From Octopus vulgaris (taxonomy: Eukaryota): 64,000 nt of DNA. A program made the translations under genes and the position numbers. The notes under the pieces are model-generated. The model did not search any database. It was not told where the DNA came from and saw only the letters and a program-made list of their open reading frames with translations. This document shows, piece by piece, positions 43,993-61,211 of the stretch. Position 1 is the stretch's first letter. Each line of letters opens with the position of its first letter. The stretch covers positions 166,904,001-166,968,000 of the forward strand of contig OX597816.1 in assembly GCA_951406725.2 (NCBI GenBank), read 5' to 3'.

Positions 43993-45455
43993 GCCTTTGC
44001 ACAGCTTCTAACGCTGGAGATGTACTACAGTGTCAGCTGTTCACTATCAGTAAACTAAGGTAACAGCCCTTATTTTTCGAGCACCTTCCAGAGTATTCAA
44101 GCAGTTCCAAGCAGTGCTGTTTTCTGCAAGTGCTTCACCCTTATTTGTTCCATGTACTTCTCAAGATTTTTACTTACTGTTCCCAGGGCTCCGACAATTA
44201 TCAGTACTACTACCAACTTTTTCATCAACCACAACTGTTTAACCTCCCAAAATAATCTGTCATATCTATCGACTTTTCTTTCTTCCTTATCGCATACCTT
44301 GTTGTCAGCTGGTCATGCTATATCTATGATAGTTTGCTTTCCCTCTCAATTAAGACTATGTCTGGTTTCCTATTCTCTATCTCATGGTCGCACTGAATCA
44401 TAAAATCCCATAGGCTCTTTGCATATCTATTTTCGATTATGCCTTCAGGTTTGTGGTTGTACCAAGTTTTTGCTCTGTCAAGTCCATACTTGTAGAGTGT
44501 CCAATGGACATGCTCTGTTGTTTTCTTCCGCTCTAATGCTGTGTTCACATCCAATAAGTCCTCTTCCCTCTCTTTTTCTTGGTACATACAGTCTGTCTGT
44601 GTCCCTTTTTGGGTGGAGTGTTCCATACCTGGTTAGTAACTTCCTTGTCTTTCTGTCTAAGCAGTTTAGTTCATTTACTGTCCATGTGATTACCCCTGCT
44701 CCATATCTAAGGAGTGAAGCCACCCAGGTGTTGATAGCTTCAATCTTATTCCGTCCGTTTAATTTCAACTTAAGGATCAGTCTCAGTCTGCGCAAGTACT
44801 CCACCTTATATTTTTCTGACATTTCTTTCTCCATCAATCTATCCATTTCCAATATCCCCAAGTACTTATAGCCTGTCTCTTCTACTTGCTTCATAACCTT
44901 CCCCAACAGTATCGTTAGCCTGTCCATACATTTGATTTTGCCTATCTTTAAGACTAACACACCACACTTTCTCAGTCTGAACTCCATTCTGATATCAGAA
45001 GGTATGCATTGTATCGATGAGGGAACTGACTTGGGCTTCATCTTTACCATAAAGTTTGAGGTCATCCATGAATAACAAATGGTTGACTTCTTGTTGGCAG
45101 CTTTTGAATACATTGCGGCATCAAGCACAGTGCAAAGATCAGTGGAGACAAGCAGTTCCCTTGGAAGATGCCCCTCCTGATTTCTACTGTCTCTAAACTT
45201 CTTCCGTATGCCATCAGGTCCGTCCTCCAATTCACCACACTTTTTCCAAGCAATCGCTCAACATTCGATACAATACCAAATAGGTTCATACATTCCATAA
45301 TCCAAGAATGTGGGATCATATCATATGCCTTATGATAGTCGATCCATGACGTGGCTAAGTTACTTTTCCTCCTCTTGCAGTCTCTAAGTACAGTTTTGTC
45401 TATCAAGAGTTGATCCTTGGTACCTCTGCACTTACGCTTGCAACCTTTCTGCTCA
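43993..45455 (-). mobile_element. R4/Dong-like non-LTR retrotransposon (RT plus restriction-like endonuclease), 5'-truncated and frameshifted
   Basis: EQKGC...[104 protein letters not shown]; 3' end abuts (TAA)n at 43883-43992. Confidence 0.92.
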
Positions 45456-46004
45456 TATAATACAACACAGACATTTAAATTGACAGGGTTTTTCTAAAGA
45501 TGTGGGCAGTACTTGTCAGCACAATCTTTTGGATTTCTCTGAGACATGGTTCTCCTGGGATGTTATCTAGATGCTTCTGACATTACTTTTTTATCATACC
45601 TAGGGCACCTACAATAACAGGAACAGTTCTCACTTATATGTGTATAAGTCCTTAGTTGAAAAATACCTGTTGTTATGTCCTGTTATTTGTATTTGTGTAA
45701 CATTATCCATTTTTTTTGTGTCCTTGTTTCCATAGACATTCGCTGCTTTCTTCCAAGGAATCTAATGCTCTTAGCTTAGTTTTTCCTTGAGGCTGGCCAG
45801 ATTGGAGCAATCTCGAGTATAACCAGCTGAAATTGCAAAGATAATCTAGAACTTGACTGAGGAAAGAAAACTCCAACTGACCCGTCCTTGTTTTCTTTGT
45901 ATCATCTATCTGGATATTTTGTTGTTCCTTTTTTGTATCACCTATCTGGATGTTTTGTGTTTTTGTCCCATTTTGTATTTTTTATATATATGTATGTATA
46001 TGTG

Positions 46005-53109: not shown

Positions 53110-54586
53110 TTCACTGAAATTTAGCAGAAGCAACAGACTGACTCAAGGTCTGAGAGTTTCATGCATTGGCACTTAGGTGCCAACACGTGAGTCATTCTGT
53201 TGCTTCTGCTGGGGGTTGGTGAAAATATACATATACTTGTAATTTGAGTTAGTTTTCCTGTAGACACACCCTGGTGTCACACAAATGGCACCTGTACCGG
53301 TGGCACATAAAAGCACCCATTACACTCTCGGAGTGGTTGGCATTAGGAAGGGCATCCAACCATAGAAAACCATGCCAAATCAACTAGATCCCGACGCAAC
53401 CTTCCAGCGTGCCAGCCGAGCCAAACCATCCAACCCATGCCAGTATGGACAATGGATGTTAAATGATGATGATGATGATAATATGACTTCTGGAAACATG
53501 GATGTTTTGTTGATCGTCTTTAAACAAACCTTATTCAGGGACCTTTTGAGCGGGATGGGCTACTCAGCCTGAAGAAAATTCTACCTGGGCCCCACCTGCA
53601 AGGTCATGTGCTGTTTATCTTGATATGAAGTCACCATGCCATGCAGTTATGCTTGTGATGCATGTGGCTGGTGTACTCTTATCAGACGGGTAGTCAAGAT
53701 GGGTATATTGGGCTTCGTATATTTGTACCCCAGTGTCACTCCAAATTGAAAGTGGAAATGGCAAGACTGTAAGGAATGTGAGAGGGTAAGGTAAAAGTGA
53801 TTCCAGTGGTGATTGGAGTGTTGGCATCAATCCCATTGAAACTTCAAGACTTCTTAAGGCAACTGGAAATCCCATGCAAGATTAATGTCTTGCAAATAGC
53901 AGCCTTATTGGGCACAGTACACATCTTAAGGAAAGTATTATTTGTCTGAGGTCCTTGTTGTGACTTCTTAGATGACTAAAGACTCCAGTGCATTTTTACT
54001 TACATTGTGTTACAAAGGAATGATAATAATAAAAATAATAATAATATTCACACAAGCATTTATATATTGTTATTGTTTTCATATTGAGTTACAAAATCAT
54101 CAAATACATTATGGTGTTGTTCAATATTTGTTTTTCATGAAAGTTTATGGACAAAACAACTACCAGCATAAATTACTAACAATATGATAACCAATAATAA
54201 TAACAATAATAATAGTAATAATAATGACGATTTCTTTATTAACCACAAAAGGTTTACAATTAGAAATGGCACAGTATGATGATAATAATAATAATAACAA
54301 TATCAATTCCATCATTTCATTGTACAAGAGTCACCTATGTAATCAGAAAGCAGAAAGCATGGAGCATATTGTAAGCAGGTTGCAAAATTTCGGCTCAGGA
54401 AGACTGCAAGCAACATCAGGATAACAAGATAATGTTTGTCTCAATTTACACTGGTTCAGTCCCAGGTCGTGGTACTTAAAGCAATGTCTTCTACTGTAGC
54501 CTCAGGCCAGCCAAAGCCTTGTGATTGGATCTGGTAACTGAAAAAAGCTCATTTCATATGTGTGTGCATGTGTGTTTATATAGGTG

Positions 54587-54618
<32 letters not shown>

Positions 54619-54637
54619 TCTTATTGAAATATATATA

Positions 54638-55218
54638 TAAATGTCACTAAATGTAACTAGGGTGTTAGGAAACGCTAGAAATAAAAGCTAAATCACTCTA
54701 ATTCTGTAGTTGATGCACATGAATGAAATCATATACATTAACAGGGACGATAATCATCTGAAAAGTGCTGATCATGAATTCTTAATATCGCCGCATCAGT
54801 TTCAGCAATTTCCATTGCCTCATCAGTTAAGACGGCTCAGCACTTTTCAGGCGATTATGGAACCTGTTAGTGTATATGTTTTCATTCATGTGCATCGACT
54901 ATAACAAGGCGGCAAGCTGGCAGAAACGTTAGCACGCTGAGCGAAATGCTTAGCGGTATTTCATCTGCCATTACATTCTGAGTTCAAATTCCGCCAAGGT
55001 CGACTTTGCCTTTCATCCTTTCGGGGTTGATAAATAAAGTACCAGTTACACATTGAGGTCGATCTGATCGACTTATTCCCTTTGTCTGTCCGTGTTTGTC
55101 TCCTCTGTGTTTAGCCCCTTGTGGGCAATAAAGAAATATATAGCATTAGAGTGATTTAGCTCTTATTTCTAGCAATGTAGGTGTTTCCTAACACCTTAGT
55201 CACATTTAGTGACATTTG
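54638..55218. mobile_element. TA-flanked palindromic element with ~145-bp arms, interrupted by a SINE B at ~54907-55138
   Basis: Left arm 54638-54785 is the reverse complement of 54827-54906 plus 55145-55218 (AAATGTCACTAAATGT, GATGCACATGAATGAAA, CTGAAAAGTGCTGA, TCTTAA); TA at 54636-54637 and 55219-55220. Confidence 0.88.
54780..54832 (-). ncRNA. type I hammerhead ribozyme motif forming the loop of the palindrome
   Basis: Minus: TCTTAA-CTGATGA-GGCAAT GGAA ATTGCT-GAAA-CTGATGCGGCGA-TA-TTAAGA. Core intact; stem II closed by G-U; stem III imperfect. Confidence 0.68.
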
Positions 55219-55264
55219 TAATTCTCCTTTTTGGTGAAACATTGCAAATTGTTGTTTATATTAA

Positions 55265-55815
<551 letters not shown>

Positions 55816-58907: not shown

Positions 58908-60916
58908 TTATAAGATTCTTTCCATATAAATGGCAAAATATAATGTGCCTTTCTTATCTGAATATCCAGCAATTAGTTTTGGGAAAAAACTGTCCTTCAA
59001 GTACCCATCGGCAATGATATCTTCAAGCTGTGATATCTCAACATTGTTTTTGAATGTGCCTTGTCTGGAAGGGTCTTTCCTGAAAATGACTGAAAATCTT
59101 GGTCTTTTATACTTGCTGGAAGTGTCCAAGTATGTCATAACACGGTGTGCCTTAGCATTTGAGACAACGGTCTCAGTCAGTTCCTTCAGGGAAATATCTA
59201 TGTATTCTTTGTACTCTTTTACAGGTTTCTTTTCCAAAATGAAACACACTTGTGGTTCTTGATCAATGTGGACAAAACTCTGGACTCTTGGGACATAACC
59301 CTTCTCATTATAAACTTGAGCAAACAATTTGTAACATTGGGAATATTGTCGAATTCCAAATCGAATATCAACAGGTTCCTCTTTCACCGTATCAAATAGT
59401 GCCATATATCTGTTTTTGTCTGTGTGTGCGAAACTGATATAACTCTGTAATAAAGACAGATATACATTTTCCTTGGAATAAAGATGTTTGAAGTGGAGCA
59501 AACCCTTCTCGTCAAGCCCATGCTCCAGATAGAAAGAACTAAGACTTTCATCTGGGTTTATTTTAGAGATAACAGAAAAATAAGATTCTCTATTATACTC
59601 AAAAGCATTTATCCATTCAATTTTGAAGTGTTGGTCTTTAATAGCATTGACATATGCTGAAATATGGTGTTCAGACAACTTGTATTTAATAATTTGCTCG
59701 TTAACTCCTACATGCCCTACCCGAATATCGGCCAAATCATAAGAGAAGTAATTAGCACCATTTTGCGACCAATCTTTGAAATAATTCATGAAGTTTTGAA
59801 CTGGTAATGGTTTATTGTGACCACCAACTAATAGCATAACAAATGTCTCTGAAGACATATATGAGGAATTACCTGGATTCTGAACCGTTTGTAAGAAGTT
59901 CCGGTGGCACAACAGCATACCATCAATTATGCCATCTCCTTCCAGACAAACTCGACCATGTTTGTTCACATTTAGGTTAGCACCAACCCATGAGCCTGAA
60001 GCTTTCATTTTTCTTGGTTTTGCCAAGAGACTTTTGATGGAAGATTTTTTAAGTAATCGATGTGTACCAGTATGATCCAAGCATCGAAAAAAGCGCATAA
60101 TATCATAAACATTGGTATACCAGCCATCAGTGAGAGAGACCACCTCCCTCTCTAGGTGTAGAGAATAAGTTGTATTAAAGTTTCCGACCAAGCTACGTTT
60201 AACCATATTTTTTATCCTGTTTTCTTTCATATGTTTTCCGAATCTTGTATGCCACATTCCACAAGGCTCCAAAATATTTTTCCTTACAAATGTTGGATAA
60301 TCATAATTTTGAACTTTCTCAATAATTTGGTCCAGAATAACATAACCAAGATGAGAATGAACTGATTTTGTTCCTGGTTTAAAATTCAGTGGAATCGACA
60401 TCATGTATCTGAAAATATCCTTCATTTCAGCAGTGTTCTTTAACTGCATGATGGAAGTGATGTTTGGAATGCGATAACCATTCTTTAAGTAAATAGAATT
60501 CAGAACTGGATCAAACATTGGTGGCATAGCTGAATCCCAGCCACCAGCATGCCGAAGAAGGTCATCGACTATAATGTCATACAGCCTGTTGTCAGTTCGA
60601 AAAATGCTCCAAGGTCGTAAGTGATTCAAAATTCCAAACTTACCAAAGACTTTAGCAGTAAGGTTCACTTTACCATTTTCAACAAGTTTAAGAACGGATA
60701 CAGCAGTGAGTAATTTAGAAATATTTGAAGCTGGAAACAAGACTTCTGGTGTCATTTTAACATTGTTCTGTGTACTGCCATAACCATGGGAGTATAAGAG
60801 TTTCCCTTGGCGCATCAAAGCAACAGATGCACCCCGATATTGGAATTGCTTTAAAAATTTCTGGAAAGATTTGTCAAAATTTGCATTGTTCTCAAGACTT
60901 GGTCTTCCGTTGATTC
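58908..60916 (-). CDS. terminal coding exon of a beta-lactamase/PBP-fold protein with five C-terminal BTRD1/polyglycine-hydrolase-like repeats; upstream exon(s) not identified
   Basis: Uninterrupted frame of ~668 codons; acceptor TTTTTTTTTCATTTTCTCCTTAG| at 60917 (phase 1); begins INGRP...FDKSFQKFLKQFQYRGASVALMRQGKLLYSHGYG; family motifs FPASNISKLLTAVSVLKLVENGKV, DDLLRHAGGWD, LNFKPGTKSVHSHLGYVIL, ILEPCGM; stop TAA at 58908-58910. Confidence 0.9.
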
Positions 60917-61211
60917 CTAAGGAGAAAATGAAAAAAAAATAACATTAATTAGAATAACAATATTTTGATTAAATTTTATAAATTAAAAACCTAAAGAAGT
61001 GTTATAAATTCAGAACATGCTAGTTGGAAATATAGTGACTATACATTTACAGGTTTATTGGTATTGTTGAAAACAGTAGATGTACATCCAAAAATGAATA
61101 GCATTAAACACACAACAGATTAGTTCAAAATTATACACACACATACACACATATATATAAGAAATTAAATAAATGACAAGGAAAGAAGGAATTATGTCAT
61201 GAACTTCATTG

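Follow-up and report, generated by a model that had tools for sequence, protein, structure and literature searches.

A probable decayed head-to-head insertion of a hammerhead-bearing 358-nt retrozyme in the genome of Octopus vulgaris

We analyzed a palindromic, hammerhead-bearing element in a stretch of 64,000 nucleotides of Octopus vulgaris DNA, referred to as the window. With a probability of about 80%, the element is a decayed head-to-head insertion of a non-LTR retrozyme with a 358-nt monomer. It was likely pasted into the genome by a Penelope-type enzyme, within a host transcript its arms likely pair into a hairpin that is edited, and its ribozyme probably no longer cuts. The palindromic layout is the published insertion signature of Penelope-like elements and does not define a new kind of element.

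The window copy is composed of the following parts:

54639–54838, minus strand: arm 1, a 5'-truncated piece of the 358-nt monomer that holds the hammerhead
54837–55218, plus strand: arm 2, an inverted 5'-truncated monomer piece starting at family position +55, with a SINE-like repeat inside
54904–55138, plus strand: SINE-like high-copy repeat, a later insertion with a TATA duplication
55219–55270, plus strand: tail of about 55–60 nt (family positions ~+198 to +257), found on arm 2 but not on arm 1 and followed by a TA-rich microsatellite

Arm 1 spans the family positions −12 to +197 (with the C of CUGAUGA as position 0) and ends at the short 3' end of the family, adjoining TA repeats. Arm 2 is arranged head-to-head with arm 1, and the two pieces overlap by 2 nt at the joint (54837–54838). 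Each arm comprises less than one monomer unit and has no tandem partner. An alignment of residues 54639–54771 with the inverted segment 54837–55218 resulted in 121 identical bases out of 135, with a 9-nt deletion in the left arm, and the folding of the arms far exceeds that of shuffled sequences (z = −10.6). The right arm is interrupted by the interspersed repeat of 235 bp, which has many matches across the window and whose TATA target duplication (54900–54903 and 55139–55142) can be read directly from the sequence. Inverted arms with a nested repeat had been described in an initial annotation of this DNA and are confirmed here; the repeat, there named SINE B, is referred to as SINE-like. The same annotation regarded the element as TA-flanked on both sides. 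This does not hold for the right end, since family sequence continues beyond 55218 to approximately 55270 before the TA repeats begin. The inverted arms stop at 54771 and 54837 and leave a spacer of 65 nt instead of the ~41 nt given before. The pair TCTTAA/TTAAGA is indeed stem I of the ribozyme, as had been proposed, but it does not represent the innermost bases of the arms: it lies outside the inversion, because ordinary, non-palindromic monomers have this stem I as well.

The ribozyme motif is located close to the joint:

54780–54832, minus strand: decayed type I hammerhead with a G-U closure of stem II and a broken stem III

On the minus strand the order of elements is UCUUAA, CUGAUGA (54826–54820), stem II, GAAA (54803–54800), the stem III region, UA and UUAAGA, with a predicted cut site between 54786 and 54785. 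The motif alone is within chance, as five loose core motifs were seen in the window and 4.5 were expected; the evidence beyond chance comes from the family described below. A search with the Rfam model Hammerhead_1 had been proposed in the initial annotation; in Rfam the window yielded only a weak match to Hammerhead_3 (23.2 bits, E = 0.062), which is below the cut-off of 48.5. A type III hammerhead, as indicated by this match and by the minimum-energy fold, was considered and rejected: the respective pairing rests on changes that are private to the window copy.

The window copy keeps the core letters of the hammerhead. Its stem III is broken, lacking the second pair as well as the palindrome, and its stem II is closed by a G-U pair. 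Both this closing pair and a sixth pair in stem II are C-to-T changes at CpG sites, so that the 6-bp stem II noted earlier reflects decay of this copy, the stem II of the family having 5 bp and a loop of 6 nt. The active fold was calculated to lie 8.7 kcal/mol above the minimum. This gap by itself is no proof of a dead copy, since nine motif-intact relatives span a range from 1.6 to 11.9 kcal/mol. For the stem III self-duplex we obtained −7.1 kcal/mol, compared to −25.1 and −19.3 kcal/mol in the two main family forms. As judged from these models, the ribozyme of the window copy is probably inactive. The impression of an aged copy in the initial annotation is supported by the G-U closure and the broken stem III. 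Self-cutting at the tip, which had been proposed along with it, is unlikely for this copy, given the broken stem III, the gap of 8.7 kcal/mol and contigs of presumed RNA that run across the cut site.

The window copy belongs to a dispersed family, whose unit is a head-to-tail monomer of 358 nt with low GC content and one type I hammerhead per unit. A DNA search of the 2.8-Gb genome returned at least 97 matches, based on 40 scored out of 913 candidates. A 19-nt core pattern gave 114 exact matches (control: 0) and a gapped core pattern gave 170 (control: 2). The exact 19-mer is present in 10 of 61 sampled units and in none of the 14 units of the least biased set. Since so few units contain it, the 114 exact matches suggest that ribozyme-bearing units number roughly 700 or more. 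Before counting we excluded 15 loci that had been fetched twice, three near-duplicates, one poorly cut unit (from the alignment) and locus L188, which belongs to an unrelated family. Arrays exceeding one unit were found at 41 of 147 loci. No plausible long reading frame over the element was detected in the first 46 loci.

Some further observations were made on these loci. Three pairs are nearly identical including their flanks (96–99%; L082/L083, L084/L087 and L107/L110) and probably represent segmental duplicates. Flanks shared between arrays occur on both sides and in both orientations and were read as other common repeats. Locus L188 (2980–3060; G000:C2:62810316) contains an unrelated hammerhead. 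Its stem III is similarly palindromic, its stem II is different, and the locus shows no similarity to the monomer.

In the motif shared by the relatives, the proximal stem I of 6 bp is extended imperfectly by about 30 bp; stem II has 5 bp, stem III is palindromic and the site is GUA. The CUGANGA...GAAA...UH core, the three helices and the open stem I correspond to a type I hammerhead. The hammerhead pairing is present in 85% of the cells of 83 natural units, a value that was reached by 0 of 500 shuffles. Among these units, double changes were observed at three pairs of stem I (UA52/CG16, UA62/CG8 and AU55/UA18) and at one pair of stem II (AU62/UA12); they reflect a few subfamily events inherited by many copies and not 80 independent ones. 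Of the aligned loci, 19 are variants selected by hand from a pattern search in which the core and stem III were held constant. A test for covariation in stems II and III had been proposed. It was seen in stem II, whereas the pairs of stem III are nearly invariant and only its middle varies. The middles CG, CGCG, CCGG, AT and ACGT are all palindromic; the exception is a non-palindromic CCGA in nine units. A palindromic helix III has been described as a mark of hammerheads that are able to work as dimers (PMC4209133). The curated Rfam cut-off was not reached by any of ten loci, motif-intact ones included.

Outside CpG sites, the core bases correspond to the column majority in 576 of 607 cells (94.9%), compared to 7736 of 8559 cells (90.4%) outside the ribozyme. 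All 11 core bases are intact in 32 of 61 units, most of which had been ranked by likeness to the window copy. We read the core excess as conservation in the source elements followed by decay after insertion. Selection on the inserted copies was rejected as an explanation, as only 32 of the 61 units keep the full core despite this excess. With dispersed copies that retain the core and with covarying stems I and II, the view that the window contains a genuine hammerhead of a mobile family is supported, and the type can be specified as type I.

The insertions display a recurrent architecture. Head-to-head pairs of truncated arms occur at 55 of 147 loci (35 of 109 in two pattern-selected sets), while tail-to-tail pairs were found at none. 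The 3' ends fall into two classes located about 60 nt apart, a short end and a tailed end. In the 55 inversions the ends combine as 28 short/tail, 14 tail/other, 7 short/other, 4 short/short, 2 other/other and 0 tail/tail. The window copy is scored as short/other for the sole reason that the SINE-like repeat splits its arm. The joints are scattered; 28 overlap, 4 are blunt and 23 contain inserted bases. A microsatellite is located within 20 nt of the 3' end in 71 of 122 cases. The 5' ends are not concentrated at the cut site, with 6 of 220 array starts lying within +36 to +46; most loci of this sample had been chosen because they hold the core, a choice that conceals such ends. Many arrays start at most seven bases upstream of the core (L039, L043, L073, L084, L089, L100, L102, L118 and L121). 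Such starts may look like stalling of reverse transcription at stem I, with a possible bias from the core-selected sample.

This architecture corresponds to the insertion signature of Penelope-like elements, for which an inverted, 5'-truncated copy in head-to-head polarity, an optional tail at one end, joints with microhomology and a bias towards (TA)n have been described (PMC8557442, PMC3846280). Cleavage and extension of both strands with an internal start of reverse transcription have been reported in vitro for one such element (PMC11167929). The octopus family shares with endonuclease-positive Penelope-like elements (PMC8557442, PMC3846280, PMC11167929) the 5' truncation, partial tandems, the head-to-head inverted copy, the optional one-sided tail, microhomology at the joints, the preference for (TA)n and other microsatellite targets, and the hammerhead within the repeat. 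The Penelope link suggested in the initial annotation is therefore likely, based on inversion, tail and TA-repeat footprint. The family differs from these elements in its tail of ~60 nt, compared to a reported 30–40 nt, and in that no RT/GIY-YIG frame was found with its monomer, so that it does not qualify as an autonomous element. No autonomous partner of the monomer was found among 151 plus 20 loci: Penelope-like protein fragments occur in 6 of the 151, in no case with a demonstrated link to the monomer, and in 0 of the 20.

A young Penelope-like family was observed as well (L008: 117–599 and L168–L186; G000, many contigs). It encodes a Cys-rich linker together with a GIY-YIG domain in open frames of up to about 750–780 codons, and its 150 scored matches are 96–100% identical, nearly all of them 98–100%. 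Many neighbouring matches form minus/plus, head-to-head pairs; the two 3' ends of the family are separated by ~47 nt and lie next to TA repeats. In five loci, no canonical hammerhead was detected by a simple motif scan. The endonuclease frame beside L008 was considered as a partner of the monomer and was not accepted, because this near-identical family has no significant DNA similarity to the monomer.

The family equally resembles the metazoan non-LTR retrozymes. It consists of dispersed tandem monomers within the reported size range of 170–400 nt (Cervera and de la Pena 2020, PMC7229834) and, like those described by Li, Clavereau and Pollet (2026, 10.64898/2026.07.22.740005), it carries a type I hammerhead in each unit and no protein frame was found. 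Its stem III is a 5-bp palindrome, in contrast to 1–2 bp in most metazoan hammerheads (PMC4209133). A further difference is given by the head-to-head inversions and the one-sided tail; the main text of PMC7229834 never uses the word "inverted". As far as can be judged from sequence alone, the family would represent a new, cephalopod-type non-LTR retrozyme. We found no published octopus retrozyme: Octopus is not named in the main texts of PMC7229834 and 10.64898/2026.07.22.740005, with a listing in the supplements being possible, and a paper on the repeats of Octopus vulgaris (PMC13282606) makes no mention of ribozymes in its main text. For the giant squid genome, 235 hammerhead-1 hits have been reported (PMC6962438).

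The reading in the initial annotation was that of a palindromic family, MITE-like and flanked by TA, in which the ribozyme forms the loop. One version of this idea is a distinct palindromic mobile family, whose RNA would fold into a long rod and cut itself at the tip. In its favor, the window joint mirrors the extended stem I exactly, and a single hammerhead is located near the tip in 8 of the 55 inversions, where shuffled joints would lead one to expect 4.2 (P about 0.03). However, six of these eight came from a search with the palindrome as query, the other sets contributing 2 of 35, and exact mirror joints occur in 2 of 55 inversions against 1.0 expected (P = 0.26). The ends are unequal, and since no two tipped copies have a joint in common, the foldback was not propagated as a unit of its own. 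The idea is largely refuted by these data, and we consider it very improbable. A DNA MITE with a captured hammerhead would account for the inverted arms and for the TA repeats at the left end, but not for tandem monomers, variable 5' truncation, the one-sided tail and the missing fixed pair of terminal repeats; its probability is close to negligible. The unit of the family is the 358-nt tandem monomer with scattered joints, and a palindromic MITE-like family was rejected in view of unequal ends, variable joints and tandem units. Given the biased search, the near-expected number of mirror joints and the unshared joints, the hammerhead-tipped form in the window is an occasional outcome of the usual insertion process. 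What stands of the earlier proposal of an undescribed ribozyme-bearing family or Penelope derivative is a ribozyme-bearing mobile family with a likely Penelope link, without the palindrome as its unit.

The distinction from a Penelope-like element proper is more subtle. The monomer could be the pseudo-LTR of an autonomous Penelope-like element with a rare or lost coding body, the observed loci being stumps and not a separate retrozyme. The identical insertion signature is in line with this view, and hammerheads with a palindromic stem III have been described in the pLTRs of Penelope-like elements (PMC4209133). Complete units, however, continue upstream into another monomer, with tandem arrangements at 41 of the 147 loci, and neither a shared unique body nor a linked frame was seen in the 151 plus 20 loci. 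We regard this explanation as unlikely and prefer that of a separate retrozyme inserted by a Penelope-type enzyme.

Upstream of the element on its minus strand lies a candidate host gene:

58908–60944, minus strand: exon-like open frame of 678 codons with a beta-lactamase domain (Pfam PF00144, E = 1e-31); stop at 58908

For the roughly 350 residues that come after the beta-lactamase domain, no Pfam match was obtained. A location of the element in the 3' UTR of this gene, on the same strand, is plausible. An AATAAA is present at 54240–54235 (minus strand), and the RNA depth drops near 54200. We claim no transcript 3' end there, because the simple repeats at this place interrupt the DNA contigs as well. 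Elsewhere in the window (44478–45493, minus strand), broken reverse-transcriptase-like frames were observed, which by the look of their translation belong to a non-LTR element.

We compared contigs from 4 of 24 listed sequencing runs with the window copy, the assignment of the runs to RNA or DNA being a guess. A contig from run X1 (presumed RNA; 54626–54934) shows six differences, all of them T to C on the plus strand and hence A to G on the hammerhead strand:

54734, 54738, 54739, 54880, 54881 and 54882, minus strand: candidate A-to-I sites, located on the arms within 54734–54882

Run X4 (presumed RNA), which comes from another study and carries another organism label, has the same six changes, and the replication consists of these two runs. 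The signal originates from the window copy, since one X4 contig reaches from the unique flank into the left end. No differences were found in contigs from run X2 (a DNA guess; 54626–54821) and run X6 (kind unknown, genome-sized; 54626–54825), which cover three of the six sites and do not represent DNA of the same individuals as the RNA. In the duplex predicted for the arms, five candidate sites are base-paired, whereas the sixth, 54738, faces a C. Paired sites and an A facing a C are as expected for ADAR. The changed base at 54738 is also the commonest base of the family at this position. With the RNA label of X1 and X4 being guessed, the minus-strand changes suggest A-to-I editing of the arms. 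The X1 contig extends across the cut site; if it indeed represents RNA, uncut molecules exist. The RNA of the window copy likely forms a double-stranded hairpin that is edited and not cut, and the six changes shared by X1 and X4 make the earlier proposal of a long double-stranded RNA with A-to-I edits on its arms likely. With A-to-G changes clustered on the two arms of a long, imperfectly paired duplex, and with one site facing a C, the window copy resembles the hyper-edited inverted repeats of metazoan transcripts (PMC5625713). Here, in contrast, a single insertion provides both arms, with a probably dead ribozyme as the loop. In DNA-like contigs with two other organism labels we counted 0 differences over ~200 bases of the element (54626–54825) versus 3 and 4 over 201 flank bases (54314–54514), numbers that are too small to indicate constraint.

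Based on these data we propose the following mechanism for the origin of the window copy. A source array would be transcribed on the hammerhead strand, and the transcript would cut itself into monomers, which might form circles. A Penelope-like RT/GIY-YIG protein would then nick AT-rich DNA on both strands. Reverse transcription could start internally, at two points separated by about 60 nt, giving rise to the short end and the tailed end, respectively. The two incomplete copies would be joined at their 5' ends, often via a few shared bases. In the window the joint came to lie on the extended stem I, either by chance or by snap-back of the cDNA, which would place the hammerhead at the tip of the hairpin. 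Afterwards the copy decayed and the SINE-like repeat inserted into one arm, and with host transcription of the minus strand the arms would likely become a substrate for ADAR.

A more far-reaching variant is that the long stem I serves as a snap-back point in Penelope-type reverse transcription. Hairpins with a hammerhead at the tip would then repeatedly be dropped into host transcripts, where those still young would cleave the host RNA and those that have aged, like the window copy, would persist and tune the message as editing substrates. Snap-back at stem I fits the window joint; the variant as a whole is a long shot.

The system is no new kind. A cephalopod-type retrozyme family with the full Penelope footprint would provide independent support for the recent proposal of animal retrozymes that are moved by Penelope-like enzymes. 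Such families are probably under-counted, because their hammerhead escapes the Rfam cut-offs. For the host, one insertion of this type can supply a transcript with a ready-made editing substrate.
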